Sequence record: MN176217 | Strand: one strand, 5' to 3' | DNA length: 64,000 nt | From: Escherichia phage vB_Eco4M-7 | In this document: positions 5,755 through 63,492 of the stretch, piece after piece | Layout of the letters: every line of letters begins with the position of its first letter | Position numbering within the stretch: the first letter of the stretch is position 1 | Notes under the pieces: model-generated | Told to the model about the DNA's origin: nothing | What the model saw: only the letters and a program-made list of their open reading frames with translations | Databases searched by the model: none | Translations under genes and position numbers: made by a program

Positions 5755-6180
5755 AGAACATTGATTCGTGTGTTTTGAAGAATGGAATGTGTACAATTGG
5801 TCGCTTTACGCGGCCTTTTTGTCGTTTGGGTCGTGTTTTGTGATAGAATAATTATGACGAGGTGTTTTATTTATTAATTGTGCGGAAATATTTAGAAATA
5901 TATACAAACAGGATTGTTAATATTTTAATAGTGTATGGCTATTGGTCCGTGGTGTTTGTTAGATTCTATCTATGGATTGGATTTTCTTGGGTCGTGGAAC
6001 GTGGTTTTGAACACATTTGATACGCCTAAAATACGGTTAAAAATTAAGCGTATCATGGCTGCAGGCCGCGCCGTTCCTGGATTCCTATTTTCAAAAGTGG
6101 TACACCCTTACGTCATGATACGTCATGGTTTTCTATCCGTAAGAGTGTACAGCCCTTGCCGCGCCTGGCTTGTACATTAA

Positions 6181-6326
6181 TCTTACGGATGATACGGATA
6201 AAACTGAGCATCGTTATATATAGAATTCGAAAAATTAATTAACTCCATTTTAAAAACATTTATATTAATTTTTTTCATATCCTCATACTTATGTTAATTT
6301 ATATATTTAACGTATCATCCGTAAGA
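6181..6326. repeat. inverted-repeat element A: TCTTACGGATGATACG arms flanking ~110 bp AT-rich core
   Basis: 6181-6199 TCTTACGGATGATACGGAT; 6311-6326 is its reverse complement; extra ATACG boxes at 6018, 6112, 6355-6378. Confidence 0.8.
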
Positions 6327-6606
6327 TATAAGTAAAAACAAAGACTTGCGGCAATACGGATGATACGTCATGATACGCTTCAACCAGCCAGCAGCGGCTA
6401 AGTCATTGATTTGCATAACAAGCGGCGAAAGGGATGGATTTCTTTTATACGTATCAAACAGTACACCACGCACCACGGTCCGCAATCCTATTTGCACTAT
6501 GATTTGTGTACGTTTATAGCCATAATGAACATCAATCTGCACTTGAATATAATGTCCATCCATTGTATAATTCACACTATTAATTTGCACTATGGGATTT
6601 TGCACT

Positions 6607-7080
6607 ATGAGTCAAGATTATGTAGCGATGCCTGAAGACTTTGAAGACCCGCGATTCGCAGAGCACAATCAGGCTTTATTCGATGAGTTCATTGACCTTG
6701 TTATTCAGGGCCATGACATGCGCGCAGCTTTTGCACTAGTATTTGGAATGGAAGTTGCAACGGATAACTACACTGGCCAGCGAATCCTTTGCACGCAACG
6801 CAATCCATACTACAAGATGCGCTTCAAAAAGCGTATGGAAGAGATGCCACTCAAGGATTTGTGGAGCGTAAAAGGTGCAATTCACAATTTGGTCAAGCTT
6901 GTGCGTGATCCAGAAGTCGCAGCGTCAGCCAAGCTTAATGCTATTCGTGAACTGAATATCATCTACGACATCACGATGATTGATGAAAACGGCAACAGCA
7001 AGATGGGCCGTTCCATGGACGATTTCTACAAGGATTTTGGAGAGGCGGCCAAAGAAGGCGAGCAATTCTCCCGCCACTAG
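6607..7080 (+). CDS. putative HTH DNA-binding protein, possibly terminase small subunit-like
   Basis: ATG at 6607 overlaps the third TTTGCACTAT motif; N-terminal FDEFIDLVIQGHDMRAAFALVFG resembles small-terminase HTH (recalled pattern, not searched). Confidence 0.35.
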   Translation: MSQDYVAMPEDFEDPRFAEHNQALFDEFIDLVIQGHDMRAAFALVFGMEVATDNYTGQRILCTQRNPYYKMRFKKRMEEMPLKDLWSVKGAIHNLVKLVRDPEVAASAKLNAIRELNIIYDITMIDENGNSKMGRSMDDFYKDFGEAAKEGEQFSRH

Positions 7081-7099
7081 CCAATTTGCACTATAAAAC

Positions 7100-7133
7100 G
7101 GCCCTAGAACACATTGTCTCCAATTCTAGGGCC
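7100..7133. other. 10-bp perfect stem-loop GGCCCTAGAA/TTCTAGGGCC
   Basis: Inverted repeat just after the stop of 6607..7080; no obvious U-tract. Confidence 0.5.
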
Positions 7134-7508
7134 ATCGGTAATACGACGGGGAAGGTTGCAACCGTAAACGCGTTAGAAAGTGTATTATTATAAGTCATCT
7201 TTTAGTCACCTTACGTAACAATTTACGACCTTCAACCGTCCAATCGAACGACTCCACCAGCAGATTCGCACTATAACCTAAGACCACTCGACCCTTCTCG
7301 TTATCGACCCGCCAGCAAGTCTCGAATAGCATTCGATTTGCACTATTAACTATTGCTGCGACTCGCGTAGGATAAGCGCAATTTGCACTATGGTCGTAAA
7401 GGGATAAGGTGCGACCACTTCCGATGGACAACGTAGCGATGAGAATGAGCGTATTCATAAGCCACCAATTTGCACTATGAAAAGCGACCCCGAAGGGCCG
7501 CCATTCGA

Positions 7509-8135
7509 TTAGATAATCTGGAAGGTGTAGGACTTGTTGCCGAACTCGAAGTTCAAGCGTCCAGCTTCTTTAAGCTTCATGCGGAAGCGAATATGCTTGC
7601 TATCCGGCAAGCCCAGCGCGGCGAACGCTACGCGGACCGATTTGAACTCGCCTACACCCTCGACCATAACGCCGTTACGGGTGAGACGCTTTTGCGCCAC
7701 TTCTTTATTATCCCAACTTTTTGCAATACCTTTGCTATTCGAACGGCGATGGGAAGGAATTGCAATTTTATTCGCTCCAACCGGAGCATCATTAAGGCCG
7801 CTTTTAACGAAGGCTTCATATTCTTCGTCGGTCATCGCGTCGAGTTCTTCCTGGGTCGGCTCGGCCTTTTTAACGACCGCGCGCGCCTTATGCGTTTTTA
7901 CATCACTGGACACTTCCTCGCGAGACTTTGCGTCTGGGATGGGCGATTCGTTGGACGGATCATCGAGCGCGTTTAAGGATTCGATTAACGCGATTACGCG
8001 AGTCTCAGCGGTGCGACGGTCCGCGAATTTTTTAATCGGCTTTGAGCCTGAATTTTCGTTATAGAATGCAACGAGGTCGGCGGTCTTGGTTGCGATTACG
8101 TCGCCGCTGGTGGAGAAACGATTCAAACTGGCCAT
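7509..8135 (-). CDS. hypothetical protein
   Basis: ORF track 208 aa; strong RBS AGGAG 8 nt upstream of ATG; protein-like composition unlike the overlapping plus-strand ORF. Confidence 0.6.
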   Translation of the reverse strand: MASLNRFSTSGDVIATKTADLVAFYNENSGSKPIKKFADRRTAETRVIALIESLNALDDPSNESPIPDAKSREEVSSDVKTHKARAVVKKAEPTQEELDAMTDEEYEAFVKSGLNDAPVGANKIAIPSHRRSNSKGIAKSWDNKEVAQKRLTRNGVMVEGVGEFKSVRVAFAALGLPDSKHIRFRMKLKEAGRLNFEFGNKSYTFQII

Positions 8136-8180
8136 AATAAACTCCTAGTTTGGGAGCGGTGTCAACGACCTATTCGTTAA

Positions 8181-8243
8181 CTCATCCGTCCCGATATGAG
8201 TACATTATAATATAGTGTAGAAAAAAAGTAAAGCACTTTTTCG
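8181..8243 (-). promoter_or_regulatory. promoter-like element (minus-strand copy)
   Basis: Reverse complement reads CGAAAAAGTGCTTTAC...TACACT...TATAAT, near-identical to the 8664 element. Confidence 0.5.
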
Positions 8244-8275
8244 ATAAAAATGAGATAAATTATTTTATCTTTTTT

Positions 8276-8318
8276 CTTTACTTCTTCGTACACTCGCGTA
8301 TACTTGTTTATATCGAGA
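8276..8318 (+). promoter_or_regulatory. promoter-like element (copy 2)
   Basis: CTTTACTTCTTCGTACACT (exact 19-mer shared with 8674) + TATACT 8299-8304 + GTTTATATCGAGA. Confidence 0.5.
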
Positions 8319-8360
8319 CGGGCGATGGCCCTTCCTTCTAATAGCATCGGGAGTTTTATT

Positions 8361-8663
8361 ATGACCACTTTAATCTCTTCTATCCTTACTTACGACGAAG
8401 ACCGTTTAACCGTTCGCTCTCTTATCGCCGCCGTTAACGCGGAACTAGAATCCACCATTATTAAGGTCCGCGCGGTCGCTTTCGTCGGCCTTTCCTTCGA
8501 CGATATTAAGTACGCCGAACGTAGCGTCATCCGCTTCGCGAAGACCGATGACGAAGCCGTTACCCTTATCGAGACGGTTACGCCGCGCGGCGAAGCGTTA
8601 ATTATCGTCGAGTATATCGACGTAGAAGGCGATAAGGCTTATAAATATTTTATCGCAAAATAA
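8361..8663 (+). CDS. hypothetical protein
   Basis: ORF track frame 8304..8663, start moved to ATG 8361 after GGGAG; CpG-rich codon choice. Confidence 0.5.
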   Translation: MTTLISSILTYDEDRLTVRSLIAAVNAELESTIIKVRAVAFVGLSFDDIKYAERSVIRFAKTDDEAVTLIETVTPRGEALIIVEYIDVEGDKAYKYFIAK

Positions 8664-8717
8664 CGAAAAAGTGCTTTACTTCTTCGTACACTAAGACTAT
8701 AATGTTTTATATCGAGA
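8664..8717 (+). promoter_or_regulatory. promoter-like element (copy 3)
   Basis: CGAAAAAGTGCTTTACTTCTTCGTACACT, TATAAT 8698-8703, GTTTTATATCGAGA. Confidence 0.5.
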
Positions 8718-8770
8718 GGGGATGAGGTAGCGAATAGGTCGCTACCCTCCCGACTAACTAGGAGAATATT

Positions 8771-9061
8771 ATGATTACTTTAGCCGCTATCCGCGACGCT
8801 CGCGTCGAGACTTCCGAAAATTCCAACGTATTTGGCGAAAAGCTTAAAAACGTCTATCTTTTTAACGTAGACGCAACTATCGAGCCTATTTATGAGCCGA
8901 TCAACTTCCTCGACCTTTACAAGTATCGCGACGAGGACATCGTATCATCCCGCGTAACGATCAACGGCTTCGTCTATACGATTACCGAAATCGGCGGCGA
9001 ATATCTCGCGGTCCCGCAACTCGGCGGCGAAGTAACTTTCTTTAAAATCGTAAGCCTGTAA
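8771..9061 (+). CDS. hypothetical protein
   Basis: ORF track 96 aa; RBS AGGAGAA upstream. Confidence 0.55.
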   Translation: MITLAAIRDARVETSENSNVFGEKLKNVYLFNVDATIEPIYEPINFLDLYKYRDEDIVSSRVTINGFVYTITEIGGEYLAVPQLGGEVTFFKIVSL

Positions 9062-9072
9062 GGAGAAGGAAG

Positions 9073-9282
9073 ATGACTAATATGAATAATTCTCTTAACG
9101 CGCGCGCCCATCGCACCGCCGTAATCGATATGTTCCGCGAGCTTAAGGAATTATGCGATAATATGAACGCGATGTTATCCATCGGCGGCTGGGGATACGA
9201 AGAAGAGGTTAAATACGCGGTTATGCGTCGCCGTCGCGATAACGTCCTTGGACAAATTAAACGCGCCGGATTATTCCTTTAA
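9073..9282 (+). CDS. hypothetical protein
   Basis: ORF track 69 aa; RBS GGAGAAGGAAG upstream. Confidence 0.5.
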   Translation: MTNMNNSLNARAHRTAVIDMFRELKELCDNMNAMLSIGGWGYEEEVKYAVMRRRRDNVLGQIKRAGLFL

Positions 9283-9307
9283 TTATAATTACCCACCGTT
9301 ACTAATA

Positions 9308-9333
9308 GGCCGCGCTTAGTCGCGGCTTTTCTT
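9308..9333 (+). terminator. rho-independent terminator
   Basis: GCCGCG-CTTAGT-CGCGGC hairpin followed by TTTTCTT. Confidence 0.6.
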
Positions 9334-9453
9334 CGTCCCTATCTCGATGCGCTTCTCCGCGAAAACTCCTTTATCCTTCCCTTCGTCGTCGCATAATCTT
9401 CGTCGAGATGCGCCTTAGTTCGCATAACAGGTATTACGTTAAATGGAGAACAT

Positions 9454-9526
9454 CGCGTAAGTCGTTGTTTTATATAGACACATATATCGGACCGTTAGGG
9501 CGGGTCGCGTAAGTCGTTGTTTTATA
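9454..9526 (+). repeat. direct repeat of 21-mer CGCGTAAGTCGTTGTTTTATA (two copies)
   Basis: Copies at 9454-9474 and 9506-9526. Confidence 0.8.
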
Positions 9527-9987
9527 AAGGCGCAAAACTTTCCCTTCGTTCCGAACTAAAACGAGAAATATGCCGACCCTTCGCCCGAAAATAGTACGCA
9601 TGCGAAATTACATGCATCTCGAATAATCCCCACCGATACTATCCTACACGCAATCATTCGCTTTCGAATCATTATGCTTCATATTATCATGCGTCGAATC
9701 ATTCGCTTTCGAATTGTAACGCTGGAAACTGTAACGGCGATTGATTATTGCGTTCGTGTGGTTTTTATGGCATGGGTCTTTTGGTGCGTTTTGCTACTTG
9801 ATGGAATTTGCGGTACACTAATCAAAATACGACACATTTGGTCCACTAACTTTTCAAAGAAAAAGTCCTAGACAGTACCGTACTATTTTGTACCCACAGG
9901 AAATTTGCAGTACACTCCTGCGCAGCAGGCAAAATAAAGGGCCGCACTAAGCGACCCACGATTCACGGTTAAAGCAACATCCACCCA

Positions 9988-11577: not shown

Positions 11578-13917
11578 TTATTTTGCTGCTTTCAGCGCGG
11601 CTATCTCTGCCTCGAGAACCTCGATGCGGTCCATCAATGCAAGAATAGCCTCGTGGTGCAGTGCTGCTGCTACGCCTGGTGTGTTGACAGATTTTATGTT
11701 ATCCAACGTCGAACCGTCGCGCAGAGTAACAGGCGATGACTGTGTTTCAGATACTGCTTCAGGAAAGTCTTTCTCTACATCCTGGGCGATGAAGCCAAAA
11801 CCGACGGAGCCATTAGTTTCCAGAGTCCATGCCACGCCTCTAATATTGCGCATCTTGACGAGTGGATCAGTGATCCGCTCAATGTTACTTTTAATACGTT
11901 CATCAGATATACTCCGCCACTCCTGACACCTTGCTATTCCATCGGAGCCAAAAAGATAAGAGGCCGCGCCGCCTGTCCCGCTGTAAACGTTCAATTGAGC
12001 GCGGTCCAGCGCGGTCGTGCTACTCCTTATGCCTCCGAGAATCCAGCTTCCGCTGTACCAGTCACCGCTGATTGAGTTTACAAAATTTCCTTCTGGAACG
12101 TTGGCATAGTTTTGAATCCTTATGGCGTTGTTTTCTGCAGCAGCAACGCCTACTGAATTAACTGGGGATGCAACAAGGTCTTTAGACCGGATATATGCAT
12201 CAACAAATATTGTTCCATCAGGGCGCAGAGTTCCAATCTGGGATGTGGAATTTGGCAACACCAATTTGCCATCTTGGTTAAATGCCCACTCTTGCACCCC
12301 ATTAGATATCACCGCACCTTGTTCAGATGTTAATCCATCAATCTTGCCGTATGCCTGCAAGAATGCTTGATACGCGATGTTCGTGCCAATCTTATATTCA
12401 GATTTTACACTACCGCCTCTGACAAGCGTTCCGGTTGCAGGTTTTACTGCGTCACCATTAATGACGCTCCAAGTCGTATTCGCGGCAACAAATCCACCAG
12501 ATGCACGAATCACCCAAACACCTTCAAAGGCATTAGGTCGAATTTCATTCGCATCATCACGTCCATAAGCGCCATTTGACAGCGATGCATCAAAGTTCAC
12601 GTCTACATAATAACCATCAGAAGTCCCGCGCATACTTCCAGCAGTTTTTACTATTTTTGGCTCAAATGCGCCATATCCTCGCGTCACGCCAGAGGTGCCG
12701 AATGCAGTAAGCATAGACACATTAGGTGAACCAGAAATATTTGGTGCAGCACTCTGCCTGACACGACCGTCGTTTGAAGATACACCTCCATCACCACGCC
12801 CGAATAAACCTGGGATTGAGCCTGCTTGAACGCCGTTGCGGTCTGGAACTCGAAATGTAGTTGTGCCGTTGCCTAATGAATACTTGCCGCGTTTCGCTGG
12901 GTCCGCTAACCAATCTGCATCAGCAATAGGCGAAAGCATTTGCGCATATGCCCAAAGTTCAGGCCAATCTGCACGATTGAGTAATTGGCCGTCAGAAACG
13001 ACTTCGTAAGGCTGGATGTAAGCACGACTGTCTCGCAAGTGGAAGTCGCCGACGCCATAGTTCATAACACCGTTCATGCTTGGGCCAACGGTGCCTGTGT
13101 TCACTAAGTTCTCAACCCAACGCTTGGTTGCAGCATCATAATCGTTTACCGGATCACCAGCAAGCGGAGTCGGCCCTTGTGGACGAATATTCAACCAAGC
13201 TTGAGCATTGTCTGCTGATCCTGTGCCGCCCATTGAAGTTGGAACGATGCTTTGATCAGCGACTTGTCCGAATCCAAAAGCAGACTTCATCCCCTGTATG
13301 GTAGTTTGACCTGTGCCGCCATTTGCGACTGGTATAACGCTTTGCGTGTTATAAACTTGAACCCAATCAGACCAGGATGATATATCGACGCTATACAACC
13401 TTTGGTATACTGTGTTTATCCAGTAAGGCGTGTATCTCTGCACACAGCTGTTCGTTGAAACTCCCGTTTGTAAAACTTCAAGTATTCCAGCTTGTTCTAC
13501 AGGATAGTTGAGTGCTGTTGACGCCCCAGCATTAGTCGGTTGGTAATATTGACCGAACCAGCTTCCGTTCAGCGCGTTAAGGTTTATGCCATTAGGAATT
13601 ACGCCAAAGTTTCGGACAGTACCCGTCAAAGTCGCGGCAGTAGTTCGAATGGAAAGCATATCACCAGCCGCCCAAGCACGCGCTGCAGTACCTTCCTGTG
13701 CACGCTGCACGGTCAGGACGTTTCCAACAACGGCTGTTACTGTGACGATTTCGAATTGGAGGCCTGTTGCGGCGTCAACGATTGTCGCCACTACACGCTC
13801 GTTTGCGCCCAAGGTCGGAAAGCCCGACCCTGAGCGAATTGTGATTGTGGTGTCTGAAGTCGTCGTTGGCTGAGCGAGCGCGACCTCAAAGTTGTTTTTG
13901 AATATTAGCCTTGGCAT
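11578..13917 (-). CDS. tail fibre/spike protein with C-terminal intramolecular chaperone (peptidase S74-like) domain
   Basis: 779 aa; Gly/Thr/Asn-rich fibre-like body; C-terminal SDERIKSNIERI...ALMDRIEVLEAEIAALKAAK resembles the autoproteolytic chaperone domain of phage fibres. Confidence 0.7.
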   Translation of the reverse strand: MPRLIFKNNFEVALAQPTTTSDTTITIRSGSGFPTLGANERVVATIVDAATGLQFEIVTVTAVVGNVLTVQRAQEGTAARAWAAGDMLSIRTTAATLTGTVRNFGVIPNGINLNALNGSWFGQYYQPTNAGASTALNYPVEQAGILEVLQTGVSTNSCVQRYTPYWINTVYQRLYSVDISSWSDWVQVYNTQSVIPVANGGTGQTTIQGMKSAFGFGQVADQSIVPTSMGGTGSADNAQAWLNIRPQGPTPLAGDPVNDYDAATKRWVENLVNTGTVGPSMNGVMNYGVGDFHLRDSRAYIQPYEVVSDGQLLNRADWPELWAYAQMLSPIADADWLADPAKRGKYSLGNGTTTFRVPDRNGVQAGSIPGLFGRGDGGVSSNDGRVRQSAAPNISGSPNVSMLTAFGTSGVTRGYGAFEPKIVKTAGSMRGTSDGYYVDVNFDASLSNGAYGRDDANEIRPNAFEGVWVIRASGGFVAANTTWSVINGDAVKPATGTLVRGGSVKSEYKIGTNIAYQAFLQAYGKIDGLTSEQGAVISNGVQEWAFNQDGKLVLPNSTSQIGTLRPDGTIFVDAYIRSKDLVASPVNSVGVAAAENNAIRIQNYANVPEGNFVNSISGDWYSGSWILGGIRSSTTALDRAQLNVYSGTGGAASYLFGSDGIARCQEWRSISDERIKSNIERITDPLVKMRNIRGVAWTLETNGSVGFGFIAQDVEKDFPEAVSETQSSPVTLRDGSTLDNIKSVNTPGVAAALHHEAILALMDRIEVLEAEIAALKAAK

Positions 13918-20244: not shown

Positions 20245-21096
20245 ATGGCTTTTAAAGCTTCGAAAAAACGTGAACGCCGCTCACCCGATAGAATCGGGCG
20301 CGGCAGTCCGATAATCCCATCCAACGCTATTGCGATGGCCTATCGTCGTGAGATGAAAGGTCTTTGCTATACGATGATTGACGACTATCAAGCAGGAATT
20401 GCTGAGTGGCTTGAAAAGAAGCAGGTGAAAAAGTTCTTTGCGCAAGACTCTGCTGATTCAACTTTTCAAACCTTGATGAAGCGACTGCAACTGAAATGGG
20501 CAAAAGCCTTCGCCCGTGTCGGGTCAAAGATTGCCGCAGATTTCATCAAGTCAGTTGAAAAGGGCGCCACTTCTGCTACATTTGCAAGTCTTAAATCTGC
20601 AGGAATAGAAGCGCCAAAAGCCACATATAATAAATTCGTTGAGAACACTCTTAAAACAAGCGAGACGTTCAACACGACTTTAGTGACTAAGGTTGGCGAA
20701 GATATTCACAACAGGGTGTACGAAGCGGTGATGCTTTCGCTGACTTCGCCAGACCCAGCACAACAAGGCACGTCAGGCATTCAGGCGGCATTAAGAAATG
20801 TAAAACACTTCTCTGCAAAACGCGTAGACCTTATCGCTAAAGACCAAACAAGCAAACTTTATTGCGTATTAAGTGATGAAAGGATGCGACAGAATGGCGT
20901 TGAGGAATTTGAGTGGGCGCATTCAGGAGCAGGCAAAGAGCCGCGAATATCACATGAGCACGTCGACGGCATGAGATTCAAGCTTGATGACAAACGCTTA
21001 TGGGAAGTAGGTGGAGAACTTAAGTTCAAAAAGGGTGACATCGGTCCTCCTGGATGGGCGATACACTGCAAGTGCAGAAAAATACCAATTATCTGA
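20245..21096 (+). CDS. head morphogenesis protein (Mu F / SPP1 gp7-like)
   Basis: Position after portal; C-terminal HVDGMRF...HCKCRK motif typical of the family. Confidence 0.6.
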   Translation: MAFKASKKRERRSPDRIGRGSPIIPSNAIAMAYRREMKGLCYTMIDDYQAGIAEWLEKKQVKKFFAQDSADSTFQTLMKRLQLKWAKAFARVGSKIAADFIKSVEKGATSATFASLKSAGIEAPKATYNKFVENTLKTSETFNTTLVTKVGEDIHNRVYEAVMLSLTSPDPAQQGTSGIQAALRNVKHFSAKRVDLIAKDQTSKLYCVLSDERMRQNGVEEFEWAHSGAGKEPRISHEHVDGMRFKLDDKRLWEVGGELKFKKGDIGPPGWAIHCKCRKIPII

Positions 21097-21103
21097 GGTC
21101 ATT

Positions 21104-22024
21104 ATGACGATACCAATCAACACATTCCCTCTATCTGGACAAACTCCAGTCTTGCCTGCGGTGTATGCTAATGGCTTGGCGATTGTCTCAGAATTCACAT
21201 CAGATAAAAACCTGATTGTTCCATTGAGTCCGCCGCTTGCATCAGGGTATAACTCAGTAGGTCAATTCTTTATGATTGGCAATGATGGCGATTCGACCAG
21301 TAAGCCTAATCTGACATTGTCTGTACCTAAGATGGACATCACAGACGTTCAAACTGGCTTGACTGCATCAACAATCACCATTGCTTTTGGAGAAGCGGTG
21401 ATTATAGGAATGGAGTCTGGAGGGTCCAAGAATGCTGTCGCCGTTAAGGTAGTCAAATCCAGCGACAACCAATACACGTTACCAGCTGCGACGGATTCCG
21501 TTCTCGGCGGCGTCAAAATAGGAAGCGGAATAAGCGTCGCAGGTGATGGTACAATTAGCGTCACTCAATACTCATTGCCGATTGCGTCAGCATCTACTTT
21601 AGGCGGCGTAAAGGTCGGTACAACTCTATCAATTGATGGTTCCGGTGTGCTTAACGCAGCGGAAAGCACCGTCCAGAATGCCACGAACAGTGTTAGCAAT
21701 CCTCCAACCACTTTGGTTAATCTGGCAACCTTAAACCTTCCTGCAGGAAAGTGGCTTGTGACGGCAAGTCAGTTGACTGTCGCGACAGCAGGAATTCAAG
21801 CGAACACCGGAATTACAGCCAAATTGTCAACAAGCGATTCAGATATTACGGATGATGCATTTACGATGTCAGCGGGCATTCGGGCTGCAGGTCGTTTTGG
21901 CGGCAACATCCCGACAAAAATAATCACTCTTGCCGCGCCTGGTGATGTATATCTAAACTATCAGTGCACCGATGCATTGACATCTACCGTTCACGGACAG
22001 ATCACCGCAATTAAGCTGAACTAA
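21104..22024 (+). CDS. virion fibre-like protein with repeated ...LGGVK(I/V)G...S(I/V).G(D/S)G... motifs
   Basis: ORF track frame 21011..22024 trimmed to ATG after GAGGT; tandem fibre-repeat-like motifs. Confidence 0.45.
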   Translation: MTIPINTFPLSGQTPVLPAVYANGLAIVSEFTSDKNLIVPLSPPLASGYNSVGQFFMIGNDGDSTSKPNLTLSVPKMDITDVQTGLTASTITIAFGEAVIIGMESGGSKNAVAVKVVKSSDNQYTLPAATDSVLGGVKIGSGISVAGDGTISVTQYSLPIASASTLGGVKVGTTLSIDGSGVLNAAESTVQNATNSVSNPPTTLVNLATLNLPAGKWLVTASQLTVATAGIQANTGITAKLSTSDSDITDDAFTMSAGIRAAGRFGGNIPTKIITLAAPGDVYLNYQCTDALTSTVHGQITAIKLN

Positions 22025-22255
22025 AGAGGAAGTTATGCAAAAGATCATTCAGTCACGTTATGTTAAAGTGCGAAATATTAATTGCAACTCTTTGCTTTCT
22101 TGGAAATGGGCTGTTTATGACTCAATGTTGATTGGCGTTTTAGTTGCAGGAGTGCTATTTAATATTCACTGAATTCATCGGCAAAGGATTGCCGCGAGTT
22201 TTATACGTATAATGACGTATCATACGTATCAAGTAAGTTATTGTTTTCAAAAGAA

Positions 22256-22402
22256 TCTTACGGATGATACGGATGATACGCATCGCCGCCGTACTATATA
22301 GGAATTCAAATAAATTAATTTAAAATTATATATCTAATTTAATTTTATTTTTTTATAAACTCTTATATATGAAAAGTATCCGTATCATCCGTATCATCCG
22401 TA
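22256..22402. repeat. inverted-repeat element B: TACGGATGATACGGATGATACG arms flanking ~95 bp AT-rich core
   Basis: 22256-22280 and reverse complement at 22378-22402; further arm at 22461-22477; shares AATCTTACGGATGATACGGAT with element A. Confidence 0.8.
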
Positions 22403-22535
22403 GCACACCAGTGATAGCGCGGCTTATACACCGATACGGATAAAAATACGCCTCATTTTATCCGTATCATCCGTATCACACTAATAAAGGCGCGGCTATA
22501 TCGGTTGTTATACATATTCAAACCATAATTATTGT

Positions 22536-22564
22536 TTGCCTAAGTTTTTTTCATTAGATATAAT
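22536..22564 (+). promoter_or_regulatory. sigma70-like promoter TTGCCT-N17-TATAAT
   Basis: -35 22536-22541, -10 22559-22564, upstream of scaffold-like gene. Confidence 0.5.
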
Positions 22565-22587
22565 ACACAATACTTATTTGAGGGTGG

Positions 22588-24006
22588 ATGCGAATGCAAA
22601 CGGCACGCGAAATTGACAAAAATGGATTCTTGACGATTATGGGTTGTCCAATTTCGTCATTTGGCATTTTTGATTATTCTGCTGGTCAAGTTGGTCTTGA
22701 TGGTGATCCGAATCGCATCGTAAAAGTCTATCGCCCTGAGTCAGCGGTGAAAGACCCCGAAGCGATAGATTCATTCAAAAATATCCCTTTCATCGACAAT
22801 CACGAAATGCTTTCTGGATTTGAAGGTGATGAGGATAACACAGCACCCGAAGAGTATGGAGTTGATGGCGTTCTGACTGGCAATGTTTATTATGACAAGC
22901 CATGGATGCGCGGCGACCTTAAAGTGTTTAGCCGTCGTCTGAAGAAGGCCATTGATTCTGGAAAGGTTGACTTGTCTTTGGGCTATGACTGTGAATTCAT
23001 CATACAGTCTGGAGAGTTTGACGGGCAGCCGTATGAAGTGGTGCAGACAACTCTTCGCGGCAACCACATTGCTCTCGTGGACGTTGGTCGAGTACCAGGT
23101 GCACGGGTGCTGGATGGTCGTTGCTTTGACCATCTTTGTTTGACGACTGTAACACCATCCAACGAGGATTTAGACATGCCAAAACCGTTAAAAGGTAAAG
23201 CGCGTGATAATGCTGTTGAACAGCTGAAATCACTGATCCCTGCGCTCGAACAATTTCTGAATGAAGAGAGTACTGAAGCTGCTCATCAGGACGAAGTTGA
23301 AGTGAAAGCAGAAGAGAAGGACTCAACCGAAAATCGTGAAGAAGTAATGGTTGATCCAGAAGTCAAGGCAGAAGCAGAAGAAACCCCAGAAGGTGAAGAG
23401 AAGTTTGAAGTTGAAACTGAATCTAACGCTGGCGGCGAACTTCCGCAATTGATCAGCCAAATCGAAGCACTTATTGCAAAACTGAAAGGTGGCGCGGTAG
23501 GTGATGAAGAAGAAGTTGAAGCCGAAGTCAAAGACGAAGAAGTTGAAGTCAAGGCTGAAGATGTATCACCTTGCGACAAAGCTGAAGATGTGGTTAGCGG
23601 CCTGCAAAACAGCAACGTAAAGGGGGCTTCGGTCGAAAAAGATGACAAACCGACAAAAGCGGCGAAAGCGTCGCCAGGTCCAGCAAAAGGGGAACACTCA
23701 ATGGCATCTGATTCAGCAGTTGCTGCTTTCTACGCTGATTCTGCTCGTAAGAATAGCCTCTACCAGCGCCTGTCTAAAGTTGTTGGTGCCTTTGATCATG
23801 CAACTATGGACTCCAAGTCCGTAGCGAAATATGGCGCTAAAAAGTTAGGCTTGAAGTGCGTTGATGGTGCTGAGTTTGACGTGGTGGATAATTATCTACG
23901 CGGCGTTGAGCACGGTCAAAAACAGCGTGTAGTCGCAAAACAAAAGGCCGCTGCGGATTCTGCAGCAACTGACGAAGCATTTGAAGCTTGGTTGAAAGGG
24001 GAATAA
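22588..24006 (+). CDS. putative prohead scaffolding protein (possibly with N-terminal protease-like domain)
   Basis: 472 aa; long acidic E/K/V-rich central region; position between MuF-like and capsid genes. Confidence 0.45.
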   Translation: MRMQTAREIDKNGFLTIMGCPISSFGIFDYSAGQVGLDGDPNRIVKVYRPESAVKDPEAIDSFKNIPFIDNHEMLSGFEGDEDNTAPEEYGVDGVLTGNVYYDKPWMRGDLKVFSRRLKKAIDSGKVDLSLGYDCEFIIQSGEFDGQPYEVVQTTLRGNHIALVDVGRVPGARVLDGRCFDHLCLTTVTPSNEDLDMPKPLKGKARDNAVEQLKSLIPALEQFLNEESTEAAHQDEVEVKAEEKDSTENREEVMVDPEVKAEAEETPEGEEKFEVETESNAGGELPQLISQIEALIAKLKGGAVGDEEEVEAEVKDEEVEVKAEDVSPCDKAEDVVSGLQNSNVKGASVEKDDKPTKAAKASPGPAKGEHSMASDSAVAAFYADSARKNSLYQRLSKVVGAFDHATMDSKSVAKYGAKKLGLKCVDGAEFDVVDNYLRGVEHGQKQRVVAKQKAAADSAATDEAFEAWLKGE

Positions 24007-48754: not shown

Positions 48755-49014
48755 ATTTTACCTTCTTGCATTAGCCCTTCAACACGGGTCATTTGATAAC
48801 GTTCAGGTTTCCAAGCCGCCAAAGCCTTCTCAGCGCCTTTTAAGGTTTTATATGCCTTGATGCCAGGCACAATAACGGTATTCACCCCAGCACCGTTGCC
48901 ATAATCAAACTCTTTCACAACGCGGAACATCCCGTCAATTTCTTTGACCAAAAGACGTTTGAAAGCGATTGCGCCAGTAGCTTCATTTTTGTAACGTTCA
49001 AGGATGCGTACCAT
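48751..49014 (-). CDS. hypothetical protein
   Basis: ORF track 87 aa. Confidence 0.45.
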   Translation of the reverse strand: MVRILERYKNEATGAIAFKRLLVKEIDGMFRVVKEFDYGNGAGVNTVIVPGIKAYKTLKGAEKALAAWKPERYQMTRVEGLMQEGKI

Positions 49015-49088
49015 TTTGTATTCCTCTGTTTCGTTTCGATGAAGTAATTATGACTCATCTTCCGTGACAAGTCAAATTATTTTTGATA

Positions 49089-50612
49089 TTAATTCATCTT
49101 TTTGCCGTCGAGGATGTGATCAGCAAGCATAGACTTCATACTCAATGAACGCTGAATTTCTTCGTCGATGGTATCAACCCCAATAAAATCAACATACAAC
49201 ACGCTTGATTTGGTGCCGATGCGGTGATTTCGGTCTTCGGATTGCTTGCGCAACTCGTTGTCATAGTTGCAAGAATAATAGATTGCCAAGTCGGCGGCGG
49301 TAAGCGTGATTCCGATGCCTGCCGCTGCAGCGTGACAAACTAAGACTTGCGTTCCACCGTTCTCAACTGTGTTCTTTTGGAAGTCATCAATCAAGAACTC
49401 GCGCTGCTCTTTTGATGTTTCACCGTTGTACACACCAGTGACCACGCCTTCAGACTCAAGCCAATCCTTAATCTGGTTCATCTCTTCCTTAAAGATGGCC
49501 CAAACAATGAATTTGCGCTCTGGGTCATCTTCCAACACCCCTTCCACATAGTCCTTAAAGGCCGTGAATCGTGGGTTGTCTTCCATGTACACCATCTCAT
49601 CATACACCTTAACAAAGCCTGATGTCACCTGCTTCATCTTAGTGCGAGATGCGATCATCTCAAACTTAACGTTTTCTTCTTCGCCTTTATACTCCATCAG
49701 ATAGTTGTACTCATTCTTGAGTTCATCATAGACATCGCGCTGCTTAGGCGACAACTCGAAGTCGATAAACTTGTACACCTTCTCTGGAAGGTCCGGCAGG
49801 TATTCCGCTTTTGTCGCGCGGAAATAGTGCGGCTCCATCAGCCGGATAAGCTTGTCAAGGTTTTTGTACATCGGTCGGCCAAACTGGTCTTTGCGCGGCA
49901 CTTGCGGAATGCCATAACCGTTGCCGCCGATTTTCTTGAGAATGGCCTGCATCTCTGGGTCGTGCGCTTCAAGTAGTACTGTGAATTCAGAGTTAAATGC
50001 GCGGAACGATTTGGTGCCAAGCAAACCTGCTTCAAGGAAGTGATACTGCATGTAAATATCAGCAGGCGAGCGCGGCAGCGGCGTACCGGAAAGGATTCGA
50101 CGGGCCTTTGCCAGCCGTCCCAATTCCACAACCTTGATGGAGCGTTTGGCTGTGTTATTTTTGATACGCGTCGATTCATCAATGATCATCAAACAGCGGT
50201 ATTTCTTCAAGACCGACTCAATGTGTTGATAACCGACTGGTGTGTTGACGGTGTCAATGTTGAATGAGAAGATGCGCGCAGGCACTTCGCCTTCAGGGTA
50301 GTGATCAGCAAACATCTTCTCCCAAAGCGCCTTGCCCTTTTTAGTCTTCATCTTGTCATTGCCGCGCCAGTAATGCCCAATCCACTTGATGGAAAGGTGT
50401 TCTGGTGCTTCACGACGAATCCAGTTTGAGTGTACACCGTTAGGAGCGATGACAACCATGGCATCAAATGCGCCAGCGGCGAAGTGTTTTTCAAACTCTG
50501 CCAAAGCGGTCCAGGTTTTGCCAAGACCCTGCTCCATAAAATAAGCAAAGTATTTTCTGCGGCCTGCTTTATCAAGCGCCAATAATTGGTGGCGCATTCC
50601 TTGTGTTTTCAT
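49089..50612 (-). CDS. SNF2-family helicase
   Basis: 507 aa; EQGLGKTW (Walker A), IIDESTRIKN (DExx box). Confidence 0.75.
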   Translation of the reverse strand: MKTQGMRHQLLALDKAGRRKYFAYFMEQGLGKTWTALAEFEKHFAAGAFDAMVVIAPNGVHSNWIRREAPEHLSIKWIGHYWRGNDKMKTKKGKALWEKMFADHYPEGEVPARIFSFNIDTVNTPVGYQHIESVLKKYRCLMIIDESTRIKNNTAKRSIKVVELGRLAKARRILSGTPLPRSPADIYMQYHFLEAGLLGTKSFRAFNSEFTVLLEAHDPEMQAILKKIGGNGYGIPQVPRKDQFGRPMYKNLDKLIRLMEPHYFRATKAEYLPDLPEKVYKFIDFELSPKQRDVYDELKNEYNYLMEYKGEEENVKFEMIASRTKMKQVTSGFVKVYDEMVYMEDNPRFTAFKDYVEGVLEDDPERKFIVWAIFKEEMNQIKDWLESEGVVTGVYNGETSKEQREFLIDDFQKNTVENGGTQVLVCHAAAAGIGITLTAADLAIYYSCNYDNELRKQSEDRNHRIGTKSSVLYVDFIGVDTIDEEIQRSLSMKSMLADHILDGKKMN

Positions 50613-51031
50613 GACAATTCCTCTAAATACTTGATGATGTGATGAATAGTTCCCTTCACGATTATCTCACGTTGAACGTCTGCAGTATTATAACGCTTTA
50701 ATTCAATCGAAGGGTGGACTAAATAAAACATCTTCTCAGAATCAACCTTAAGCAAAACGAATGATGGGTATCTCCAATCATTCCAAGAAGAAAGAAAGCT
50801 GCATTGACCTTTCTCAAATGCATTTCTGAAAGGTGCAGTGGTGGCCCTTGCAGGCCACGATTCAAAGAACTTCATTTCAAGCCAAAAGCCGCGCCCTTTC
50901 CGGTTGGTGCCGATTACGTCCGGCACGCCGTCACCCGTCATCGACTCGATTCGTTGAAGCTTCAATACTGATTCTGAGTGCTTCTTCAGGGGCACGAAAA
51001 TGTATTTTTGTTCACGGTTATTTGTTGCCAT
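50609..51031 (-). CDS. VRR-NUC domain nuclease
   Basis: ATG 51031 with AGGTG RBS; GDGVPDVIG...WLEMKF PD-ExK motif. Confidence 0.6.
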   Translation of the reverse strand: MATNNREQKYIFVPLKKHSESVLKLQRIESMTGDGVPDVIGTNRKGRGFWLEMKFFESWPARATTAPFRNAFEKGQCSFLSSWNDWRYPSFVLLKVDSEKMFYLVHPSIELKRYNTADVQREIIVKGTIHHIIKYLEELS

Positions 51032-59241: not shown

Positions 59242-60087
59242 TTATTCCGCTTGATCACCGTCTTCAGCATCGTCGTTGGATTCAACATCGACAAACTCGA
59301 TGTGGCCCATCTCTTCCAGCTTGCTCAGGTAGGAGCGAACAGAAGCGCCAAACAGTTGATCTTTAACTTTTTCGCCCAGCTCATCGATAGACTGTGCCAC
59401 ACCAACTTCGCCTTCTTTGATCGCCGCCAGAACGCGTCCACGGGTGGAATGCTCTTGCGGCTGGCTCAGGCCATTGCCAGTGTAGATGAAGTGAGTGGCT
59501 TTTGCACGACGCTGACCGTTTGCCTTTTTAGCAGCCTTACGTTCTGCGATGGCTTTGCGACGTTCTTCAGCTTCTTTCTTACGCTGTTCTTTCTGCTGTT
59601 CTGCAGCTTCTTTCGCCGCAATCTTAGCAGCTTCACGCTCTGCCTTGCGTTTCGCTTTAGCTTCTTCTTTGGCCTTCTCTTTTTCGGCCTTCGCTGCAGC
59701 ACGGGCTTGATCACGCTCTGCTTTCTTGGCCGCAGCCTGCTCAGCTTTCAGGCGCTTGGCTTCTTCTTTAGCCTTTGCCTTTTCGATTTCTTTTGCTGCT
59801 TTAGCGGCTTCACGCTCTGCTTTCTTGGCAGCAGCCTTTTCTGCACGCTCTTTAGCTTTCTTAGCTGCTTCTTCAGCACGCTTCTGAGCCTTCTCATCAG
59901 CAGCCTGCTTGCGTTTCAGCGCAGCTTCTTCACGCTTGGCTTGTTTTTCCTGCTCACGCTTCTGGCGTTTTTCTTCGGCTTCTTTCTTTTTAGCCAGGCG
60001 TTTTTCTTCAGCCACGCGACGACGTTCTGCTGCGGCTGCTTGTTTTTCTTCTTTAGATAATACTTTGATTGCTTCGGCCATATTCAC
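59242..60087 (-). CDS. Lys/Ala/Glu-rich low-complexity protein with globular C-terminal domain
   Basis: 281 aa; ~200 aa of KAEREAAKAAKE-type repeats. Confidence 0.55.
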   Translation of the reverse strand: MNMAEAIKVLSKEEKQAAAAERRRVAEEKRLAKKKEAEEKRQKREQEKQAKREEAALKRKQAADEKAQKRAEEAAKKAKERAEKAAAKKAEREAAKAAKEIEKAKAKEEAKRLKAEQAAAKKAERDQARAAAKAEKEKAKEEAKAKRKAEREAAKIAAKEAAEQQKEQRKKEAEERRKAIAERKAAKKANGQRRAKATHFIYTGNGLSQPQEHSTRGRVLAAIKEGEVGVAQSIDELGEKVKDQLFGASVRSYLSKLEEMGHIEFVDVESNDDAEDGDQAE

Positions 60088-61911: not shown

Positions 61912-62994
61912 ATGGCTAGTTTAAGAGAAGAAGCAAAAATAATTGAAGAGTTTTTAACAGAACTCCAAAGAGGCATTCCAGAAGATGAGCGCGTCATGAC
62001 GGTGTTTGCTCCTGAAGCAACGGTACAGACCGACGAGCGCGGCAAGAAGATTAACAGCAGCTTCTGGCCTAAGCCTTGGAAGTTGGGCAAGCCGCTCATG
62101 CAGCACCAAAACGGCTATGCTTGCATCAGTTCAATGCGTAAGTCTCCCAACCCAAAGACGGGTGAGATGCGATACTGGCGTACAGAGTCTGCCTTTGGTC
62201 ACGGCATGGCGATGATGGTTGATGACATCGGTCACGGTAAAGGGTCCAAAGGCGATTTAGATTTGGAATTCTTTTTCGAGCGACTGAAGCCGACTGTCAT
62301 CGTCGAGACTTCACCGAACAACCACCAGCTTTGGTACTTCTTTAAAGAACCGATTGGCCATCTTATTCAGTTCAAAGCGTTCCTTGGGTCTTTCGTTAAC
62401 ATGGTACTCAAGAAGGGCGGCGACAACACGATTAAAGACGTAACGCGCGTGGGTCGTGTTCCTGGGTGCATCAATAACAAGCGTGTGACTCACGACGGCC
62501 CCTATAAATATGTCGATGAGAACGGCGACCCGTTCCGCTGCCGACTTGTCCATGCAGACTACTCCTTGCGCTACACCATCGAAGACATTTGTCAGGCATT
62601 TGGCTTTCACGTCGTCATGCCGCAAAAGCGTGAGATTCAAATTGACGTCGATGAATACAAGTATGATGCTGTTTGGTATAAAATAGCCCAGCAGATTCTA
62701 GCGCGCAACAAGATGGGTGAAGGGTCTGATGGCGACGTCATCGAGAATATGTCAGGCAAGTGTCGCATAATCTGTCCTTGGGGTGAAGAGCACACCAACG
62801 GCGACCCGTATGGCGCTTACTTTCGCGGCCCTATCCCTGGTGCAGAACATGAATTTGTGTTCGGTTGCGCCCACGACTGCCACCGGAAAGGGGAAGGCAA
62901 GAAAGGTTGGACTGCTTTTGTTGAAGCAATCGTCATGCCTTATATTGAGAATCAACTTGACATGATAAATCGTCGTGCAGGTGGCATAAAATAG
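61912..62994 (+). CDS. AEP-family primase-polymerase-like protein with Cys/His-rich C-terminus
   Basis: 360 aa; MMVDDIG (DxD), ETSPNNHQLWYFF (S..H), TRVGRVPGCINNKR (R..PG.N.K); CPWGEEH...FGCAHDCH. Confidence 0.5.
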   Translation: MASLREEAKIIEEFLTELQRGIPEDERVMTVFAPEATVQTDERGKKINSSFWPKPWKLGKPLMQHQNGYACISSMRKSPNPKTGEMRYWRTESAFGHGMAMMVDDIGHGKGSKGDLDLEFFFERLKPTVIVETSPNNHQLWYFFKEPIGHLIQFKAFLGSFVNMVLKKGGDNTIKDVTRVGRVPGCINNKRVTHDGPYKYVDENGDPFRCRLVHADYSLRYTIEDICQAFGFHVVMPQKREIQIDVDEYKYDAVWYKIAQQILARNKMGEGSDGDVIENMSGKCRIICPWGEEHTNGDPYGAYFRGPIPGAEHEFVFGCAHDCHRKGEGKKGWTAFVEAIVMPYIENQLDMINRRAGGIK

Positions 62995-62995
62995 T

Positions 62996-63023
62996 TTGCT
63001 TTTATTTTCATAGCAACTATAAT
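62996..63023 (+). promoter_or_regulatory. sigma70-like promoter TTGCTT-N16-TATAAT
   Basis: -35 62996-63001, -10 63018-63023, upstream of small ORF 63053. Confidence 0.45.
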
Positions 63024-63052
63024 CATTTTATGAACTGAAGCAGAGGTGATTC

Positions 63053-63199
63053 ATGCAAAGCGAAGAATTGAACATCGAGGTTGAATGTCTGTTAAAGTCG
63101 TTAGAACCTAAACCAGCAGAGCTTCCGACCCTTCAAGGAGTCATGGCTCACCATCAAGCGGCTGCGGCCAAACAATACTCTGAATTTGTTAAGGAATAA
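63053..63199 (+). CDS. small hypothetical protein (48 aa)
   Basis: Hand-translated MQSEELNIEVECLLKSLEPKPAELPTLQGVMAHHQAAAAKQYSEFVKE; RBS GAGGTG. Confidence 0.4.
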   Translation: MQSEELNIEVECLLKSLEPKPAELPTLQGVMAHHQAAAAKQYSEFVKE

Positions 63200-63201
63200 A
63201 A

Positions 63202-63492
63202 ATGAACGAACCAAAAATGATGACCGTTGAAGAAGCACAAAAGCTTCGTGTTGAAAACGAGCTTAAGCTTGTCAACCAGATTCTCCCCTTGTTTGCAGGC
63301 TACGCAGTGGAGGAAGTTGTTGGGGCAATCCTTAACGTATCCACGCATGTCGCTATGAATCTTCAGGCAGAGCGATTCAACACGCTGCTGACTATTAAAG
63401 ACCTTACCGTCAGCGCAACGTTCACTGTTGAGCCAGTCAATTTTGACGAAGCTTCAGCCGCGATTCAACAACAAAGAGATCAAGAGGTGTAG
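63202..63492 (+). CDS. hypothetical protein
   Basis: ORF track 96 aa. Confidence 0.5.
   Translation: MNEPKMMTVEEAQKLRVENELKLVNQILPLFAGYAVEEVVGAILNVSTHVAMNLQAERFNTLLTIKDLTVSATFTVEPVNFDEASAAIQQQRDQEV

Follow-up and report, generated by a model that had tools for sequence, protein, structure and literature searches.

A conserved paralogue of the packaging-initiation region lies upstream of the head-protease operon in Wifcevirus and two other phage genera

Genomic setting of locus B

The window analyzed here is a stretch of 64,000 nucleotides from Escherichia phage vB_Eco4M-7 (sequence record MN176217). The window belongs to the genus Wifcevirus: the 3 kb used for comparison (positions 21000-24000) match Escherichia phage vB_Eco4M-7n with 100% identity and 27 further Wifcevirus records with 94-98% identity. 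The element described in this study (locus B) is found between a 45-aa ORF, which closes the portal/head-morphogenesis/head-fibre operon, and the gene that carries the annotation head maturation protease (Table 1). Locus B is located 15.5 kb from the gene for the small terminase subunit (TerS) and 5.1 kb downstream of the gene for the large terminase subunit, and abuts the protease gene.

The non-coding stretch of locus B ahead of the head-protease gene covers 415 bp (22173-22587). A sequence-only reading of this DNA had put it at 560 bp; the shorter figure applies because 22035-22172 is a small ORF annotated in relatives. This ORF lies outside the element and marks its left limit, and it appears to be a genuine small gene at the end of the portal operon. 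In our own translation, read by eye, it resembles gp030 of Serratia phage MTx, the two having a C..S..SWK..V.D motif in common, and ORF20 of Pseudomonas phage LMA2 matches it in position and size. The same reading had described the non-coding stretch as an "insert." This term is misleading: every one of the 28 Wifcevirus records has element B at this site, and synteny and conservation of the element extend across Wifcevirus, Myosmarvirus, and Pbunavirus. The sigma70-like promoter that had been noted at 22536 does close the gap (TTGCCT-17-TATAAT), and it is the putative promoter of the prohead protease/scaffold/major-capsid operon, with its ATG at 22588.

Table 1. Coordinates of the features of copy A and element B in the window
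Feature	Position	Strand	Remarks
Copy A left arm	6179..6199	+	Same arm beside each of three left-flank variants that are unrelated to one another
Copy A core, 111 nt, 17% GC	6200..6310		Left end of virion DNA between 6246 and 6247
Copy A right arm (6311-6327, minus) and further plus units (6353-6380)	6311..6380		
Direct terminal repeat of virion DNA, about 3.5-3.6 kb	6247..9862	+	Record comparison
Small terminase (TerS) gene, first of the terminal repeat	6607..7083	+	phmmer to PDB 7UXE, E=2.8e-34
45-aa ORF, hydrophobic C-terminus	22035..22172	+	Closes the preceding portal/head-fibre operon; Bas98 and WFC carry an annotation for it
Terminator-like hairpin CGGCAAAGGATTGCCG, then T-run	22179..22194	+	Holds the outermost leftward GCCGC box (22191)
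Distal left repeat units ACGTATAATGACGTATCATACGTATCA	22203..22231	-	CGTATCA at 22216 and 22225
Left arm, AATCT + TACGGATGA TACGGATGA TACGCAT, 9-bp tandem units	22254..22283	+	Invariant in 7 genomes
AT-rich core, 94 nt, 18% GC	22284..22377		46% GC in the window
Right arm, ATCCGTATC ATCCGTATC ATCCGTA, reverse complement of the left arm	22378..22402	-	96% complementary
GCGCGGCT box 1	22417..22424	+	Belongs to the outward-pointing GCGGC(A/T) box family
Lone plus-orientation unit GATACGGATAAAA	22433..22445	+	Identical to copy A 6191-6203
Third arm TTTTATCCGTATCATCCGTATCA	22456..22478	-	Repeat search
GCGCGGCT box 2	22490..22497	+	Box family member
Sigma70-like promoter TTGCCT-17-TATAAT	22536..22564	+	10/12 consensus matches; invariant in 7 genomes

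Repeat anatomy of element B

Element B is built from two inverted arms around an AT-rich core. The arms had been recognized in the sequence-only reading, and they (22259-22283 and 22378-22402) are indeed 25 nt long, 96% complementary, and 94 nt apart; the exact 22-mer in them (TACGGATGATACGGATGATACG), however, starts at 22259 and not at 22256 (22259-22280, with its reverse complement at 22381-22402). The AT-rich DNA of about 95 bp reported between them corresponds to the 94-nt core, which carries TATATAGG (22295) and the near-mirror CTCTTATATATG (22360) at its edges. As single-stranded DNA, the two arms are predicted to pair (z=-7.1). A scan of B against Rfam gave only sub-threshold matches to plant microRNA precursor hairpins (20-31 bits versus gathering scores of 80-140), which are accounted for by the inverted arms.

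To the right of the inverted arms, the further arm that had been placed at 22461-22477 was found at 22460-22478. Together with the second GCGCGGCT box, it repeats a 38-nt module that starts at 22387, with 84% identity and a distance of 73 nt. The two boxes themselves are present as claimed, at 22417 and 22490 rather than at 22418 and 22492. The exact string said to be common to B and a second locus near the TerS gene (copy A) is the 21-mer AATCTTACGGATGATACGGAT, which forms the first 21 nt of the left arm of B (22254-22274) and recurs at 6179-6199.

The window contains 23 copies of the heptamer TGATACG compared to a mean of 6.8 and a maximum of 14 in shuffles, and 16 of the 23 fall into two clusters, one at A (6018-6450) and one at B (22216-22472). 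Each locus reaches 8 copies per 500 bp, versus at most 3 in shuffles. In the complete genome of phage Bas98, TGATACG clusters occur only at A and B.

Copy A and the left end of the genome

Copy A carries the left end of the virion DNA. The records of phages WFC, SP13, Ro157lw, WFH, and Mansfield all begin at the base equivalent to window position 6247 (ATTTT), inside the core of A, and the ends of Ro157lw (PMC6454146) and Mansfield (PMC6753283) were predicted with PhageTerm. Six genomes agree without exception in the sequence at this end, AACTCC/ATTTT, where the slash marks the end. The WFC record is linear with identical genes at both ends, indicating a direct terminal repeat of 3,784 bp; the right end of the repeat is located at 9862 by the WFC record and at approximately 9781 by the PhageTerm-based records, some 81 bp apart.

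Rightward of the genome end in A, 360 nt separate this end from the start of the first gene in the terminal repeat, which carries a TerS annotation in Mansfield. It has no match in Pfam and its PHROG is of unknown function; it was recognized only through PDB 7UXE, the decameric TerS of Pbunavirus E217 (PMC9611059). Like copy B, copy A lies between a terminator-like hairpin and a sigma70-like promoter reading rightward. Because the genome end falls in its core, repeats flank the cut, and the TerS gene adjoins, copy A is the packaging-initiation site.

Several other features of this region were observed. The left flank of the A arm (5830-6170), just outside the terminal repeat, consists of unrelated sequence in Bas98 and in ECML-117/WFH, and the A arm and everything to its right are conserved despite this replacement of the flank. 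On sequence comparison, this boundary of the repeat has the appearance of a hot spot for recombination. A third large non-coding region (9283-9987) holds the right end of the terminal repeat and contains two copies each of CGCGTAAGTCGTTGTTTTATA and AATCATTCGCTTTCGAAT, none of the TGATACG family. No similarity to A or B was seen at the right end of the repeat, and a string common to the Wifcevirus right end and the MTx left end (CACTAACTTTTC) was judged coincidental. Within the terminal repeat, TTTGCACTATG occurs seven times (with at most 1 mismatch), always on the plus strand, between 6491 and 7479 around the TerS gene, and one of the copies contains the TerS start codon. Seven copies within 1 kb were reached in none of 100 shuffles, and the motif may be an operator or another regulatory motif.

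Loci A and B as paralogues

The sequence-only reading had proposed that B is a second copy of the element at 5755-6606, and the local alignment of A with B supports this (score 72, z=15 versus dinucleotide shuffles). Similarity is not restricted to the short arms, which might be shared by chance; it reaches into the core, so that the proposal stands. In genomes of the WFH type some 45 nt are covered, and in MTx the alignment spans about 270 columns. In WFH and ECML-117, the left arm of A and about 25 more bases are nearly equal to B. The layout is also shared as proposed, although not in inverted orientation: A and B are colinear, in direct orientation. The common order is the left arm, a core with TATATAG.AATTC..AAATTAATT, a T-run, the right arm, and further units. 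As A holds the left end of the genome directly upstream of TerS, locus B is a paralogue of the packaging-initiation region, one that is conserved and colinear with it.

The two copies were compared for three properties expected of a pac site. First, repeated sites that flank the cut region are present, as sequence only, in both A and B. Second, a pac site is expected to be adjacent to or inside a terminase gene, which is the case for A and not for B. Third, a packaged end is made at A and apparently not at B: no genome end at B is found in the deposited Wifcevirus and MTx records or reported in PMC6454146, PMC6753283, or PMC10913387, and the core of B is without the AACTCC/ATTTT end motif of copy A.

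Conservation of B within the genus was considered as a sign of selection and rejected. B is 96.6% identical between Eco4M-7 and ECML-117, and the adjacent protease gene is as conserved, with third codon positions at 94%. The near-invariance of B in Wifcevirus is not independent evidence, since the neighboring protease gene is equally conserved.

Elements in other genera

Serratia phage MTx (Myosmarvirus) has the same gene order as Wifcevirus, with a protease 53% identical. Upstream of this protease, its B element consists of a 26-nt inverted repeat of another sequence (13-nt unit ACGAAAAGTAAAA) around a 210-nt core. The MTx record opens at a PhageTerm-predicted repeat of 3,566 bp, inside the MTx A element, and its first gene encodes a TerS homologue. 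The DNA that flanks the MTx end is homologous to MTx B on both sides, TTTCAAATCTCGGTAGCTATAAGGAA being identical in the two. When viral contigs were scanned for exact patterns of the MTx arm, only chance AT-rich matches were found outside MTx.

In Pseudomonas phage LMA2 (Pbunavirus), a 915-bp gap separates the primase gene from TerS and a 512-bp gap precedes the protease gene. Each gap contains 22-nt inverted arms around a core of 160-190 nt, and the two are colinear paralogues. At the left edge of the core of LMA2 B (12760-12790), the sequence TATATAGCCTGGG was observed. In another Pbunavirus, JG024, 36 of 161 long reads start at 59,376, which was proposed as pac (PMC10913387). This position falls between the arms of the A element of JG024, 600 bp upstream of TerS.

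Xanthomonas phage XcP1 (Carpasinavirus) has an A-like element. A B element was looked for in XcP1 and not found, and B is apparently dispensable in this one lineage. Just to the right of the XcP1 A-like element, at 960-1050, lies an 11-nt tandem array of ACAACCCCAGA in 4-5 copies, and seven small genes lie between the element and TerS.

Compared to their shuffles, the A and B elements of one genome match each other strongly in all three genera that have both, with local alignment scores of 72 (z=15) in Wifcevirus, 127 (z=37) in MTx, and 94 (z=27) in LMA2. Cross-genus scores are 19-30, equivalent to background, even for the orthologous B-B and A-A pairs, and TerS is 35-41% identical across genera. 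The arm sequences are genus-specific and yet matched within each genome. These results indicate that the two copies co-evolve within a lineage, as would be expected if both fit one lineage-specific factor or if gene conversion homogenises them.

One sequence feature of the elements is conserved between genera, namely the outward GCGGC(A/T) boxes, to which the GCGCGGCT boxes of B belong. With the consensus (C/A)GCGGC(A/T), they point away from the core: GCCGC is always on its left and GCGGC always on its right, in 41 of 41 instances in the A and B elements of four genera (in the window, 6018-6460 and 22179-22500), against a window background of 169:140. As the boxes alone are conserved between genera, they are the best candidate target of a conserved protein such as TerS.

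Comparison with known packaging sites

The pac site of phage P1 carries hexamer repeats on both sides of its cleavage region. Copy A is similar in that short repeated motifs gather to the left and to the right of a core, about 100 bp in length, that contains the cut. Unlike in P1, the repeats here are without GATC/Dam sites, and the motif and the protein are unrelated. P1 is not known to have a second copy of pac.

In SPP1, TerS contacts the DNA on both sides of the cut. The pac region of SPP1/SF6 (pacL-pacC-pacR, upstream of and inside the TerS gene) resembles copy A in several respects: repeats are present on both sides of the cut, the TerS gene adjoins, promoters lie in the same region, and packaging proceeds toward TerS. 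There are also two differences. First, SPP1 has one pac region, whereas a second, apparently uncut copy is found here 16 kb away, before the head-protease operon. Second, SPP1 DNA is permuted by headful packaging, while Wifcevirus and MTx have exact ends with a direct terminal repeat of 3.5-3.8 kb. Multiple TerS contacts on either side of the cut are also described in a review (PMC9611059).

In T4, gp16 is associated with pac-like sequences in genes 16 and 19, and a "twin-ring pac synapsis" model has been put forward (cited in PMC9611059). What T4 shares with the phages studied here is a pair of homologous sites in the head/packaging region, separated by a few kb, for which binding by TerS rings is proposed. 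The T4 sites, however, are short and intragenic, and T4 has no defined end, while those described here are non-coding modules of 250-450 bp with arms, a core, and polar boxes, one of them with a precise end. A synapsis of A and B would be pure conjecture.

The replication promoters phiOL and phiOR of T7 sit near the ends of its genome. They share with the present pair that paralogous elements, each a promoter plus AT-rich DNA, are tied to the processing of a terminal repeat in a phage with exact direct terminal repeats. T7 differs in using promoters of its own RNA polymerase without repeat arms, and here the second copy is internal, 16 kb from the end.

A possible second recognition site for the packaging factor

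The reading that we tentatively favor, at somewhat less than an even chance, is that B is recognized by the factor that acts at the packaging site, probably TerS, without being a genome end. The sequence-specific factor by which the packaging site is marked, most probably the TerS ring, would dock at B as well and occupy it without making a genome end there. Either control of the head genes or pairing with A is suggested by the location of B, which follows a terminator and precedes the prohead-operon promoter by 60-330 nt. In the first case, B may couple the level of the packaging factor to head-gene transcription; alternatively, B may pair with A as a second site that is sensed by the terminase complex before the first cut. 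In a phage with exact ends, packaging begun at B would not yield a viable genome, and cutting at B would then be selected against. Furthermore, the arms differ between the enterobacterial and the Pseudomonas phages, which would argue against a conserved host protein as the binder.

Two points weigh against the identification of the factor as TerS. The TerS of E217 showed no appreciable DNA binding in vitro (review PMC9611059). In addition, the arms differ completely between genera in which TerS is 35-41% identical, so that the arms may bind another protein; the GCGGC boxes alone may in that case be the conserved TerS target. Searches of Pfam and PHROGs with ten small neighboring proteins for a DNA binder were informative only for the replication proteins.

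Alternative readings

A further point against the TerS reading is that iterons next to an AT-rich core are the classic look of a replication origin. A and B could be two origins, with the arms as iterons, the core as an unwinding element, and the outward GCGGC boxes marking priming or loading on opposite strands. B would be an internal origin, and A would double as the packaging end, for example if synthesis through the terminal repeat duplicates the repeat before cutting. Such pairs exist: in SPP1 the initiator binds at both oriL and oriR, and one of these origins is situated in the late region, while P4 requires crr, at a distance, in addition to ori. As in these phages, two distant loci here carry the same repeats and AT-rich DNA, and SPP1 oriR likewise lies among late genes; neither locus of SPP1 or P4, however, is a packaging end, whereas A is one. 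The very AT-rich core flanked by repeats and the symmetric, outward-polar layout fit an origin, as does the presence in the phage of a RepB-type primase (PF16793) and a VapE-like SF3 helicase (PF05272). In MTx, LMA2, and XcP1, the A element also comes after the primase gene, in MTx separated from it by one small gene.

Of the features of an iteron origin, repeats and a core of 18% GC are present at B, although the repeats are tandem 9-mers in inverted blocks. The repeats, with tandem units of 9 or 13 bp, are not helically phased, and no convincing match to a DnaA box or an IHF site was noticed when the sequence of B was read by eye. Packaging ends lie inside the A core in three genera with TerS adjoining, which ties the element to the terminase rather than to replication, and an origin role of A would come on top of its packaging role. 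The two readings are not exclusive for A, and the origin reading is possible, though on the whole doubtful. The RepB-type primase and the separate VapE-like helicase form a plasmid-like pair in the replication module (window 62209-63291; Bas98 48980-50650).

A and B could also be copies of an upstream regulatory module for the promoters of TerS and of the prohead protease operon, the arms being bound by a phage transcription factor and the genome end in A being separate and there by chance. Both copies are found between a terminator-like hairpin and a rightward sigma70-like promoter that reads into packaging or head genes, and, by eye, boxes resembling TATA(T/A)AG are seen in several genera at the borders of the core, at A as well as at B. 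The TATATAGCCTGGG sequence of LMA2 B resembles the CTGGG motif of Pbunavirus 14-1, a resemblance only, with coordinates not matched; CTGGG was reported as an alternative promoter motif for 11 start sites of 14-1 (PMC10914365). Several observations make this reading unlikely. First, there are just two copies per genome and none at the portal, terminase-large-subunit, or tail operons. Second, the promoter at 22536 is separated from the arms to its left by 60-330 nt, and a symmetric, two-sided layout is atypical of an activator site. Third, it would be left to coincidence that the end falls within the core in three genera.

That B is a selfish or neutral duplicate of no present function, such as a miniature inverted-repeat mobile element or a recombination relic, is very improbable: its inverted terminal arms around a non-coding core and the recombination hot spot just left of A would fit, but B has the same position in 28 of 28 Wifcevirus records, there are only two copies per genome, three genera, with orthologous proteins that share only about 40-53% identity, contain the pair, and the paralogues have stayed matched while the orthologues diverged to background. 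A miniature inverted-repeat element was rejected on the two copies per genome and the fixed position in 28 records, and a host origin or mobile element was rejected as no match was found in 5,426 E. coli genomes.

Implications for phage DNA packaging

If B is a second recognition site for the packaging factor, a bolder form of this reading can be considered, although we regard it as quite unlikely. The packaging site would be bipartite in trans: TerS rings on A and on the uncut B would pair, or TerS at B would gate the prohead operon, so that the first cut at A would be licensed only when head components and concatemeric DNA are present. If this were true, the specific DNA target that has long been sought for TerS would consist of the genus-specific arms and the outward GCGGC(A/T) boxes.

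Both packaging sites flanked by repeats and iteron loci in pairs are already known. In the literature searched, no description was found of a conserved, matched, apparently uncut twin of a packaging site before a head operon. The A/B pair is common to Wifcevirus, Myosmarvirus, and the therapy-relevant PB1-like Pseudomonas phages (Pbunavirus). Pbunaviruses and vB_Eco4M-7 are subjects of synthetic rebuilding (PMC10913387, PMC12345254, PMC11074155), and loci A and B are cis-elements that synthetic designs would be advised to leave intact.

Recognition of viral DNA by the small terminase is poorly understood, and specific binding has rarely been demonstrated. According to the present analysis, packaging in Wifcevirus, Myosmarvirus, and Pbunavirus starts in a defined, repeat-flanked element by the TerS gene. 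The arms and the polar GCGGC boxes provide concrete DNA probes, and A and B would offer a natural pair of cut and non-cut sites with which recognition may be separated from cleavage.
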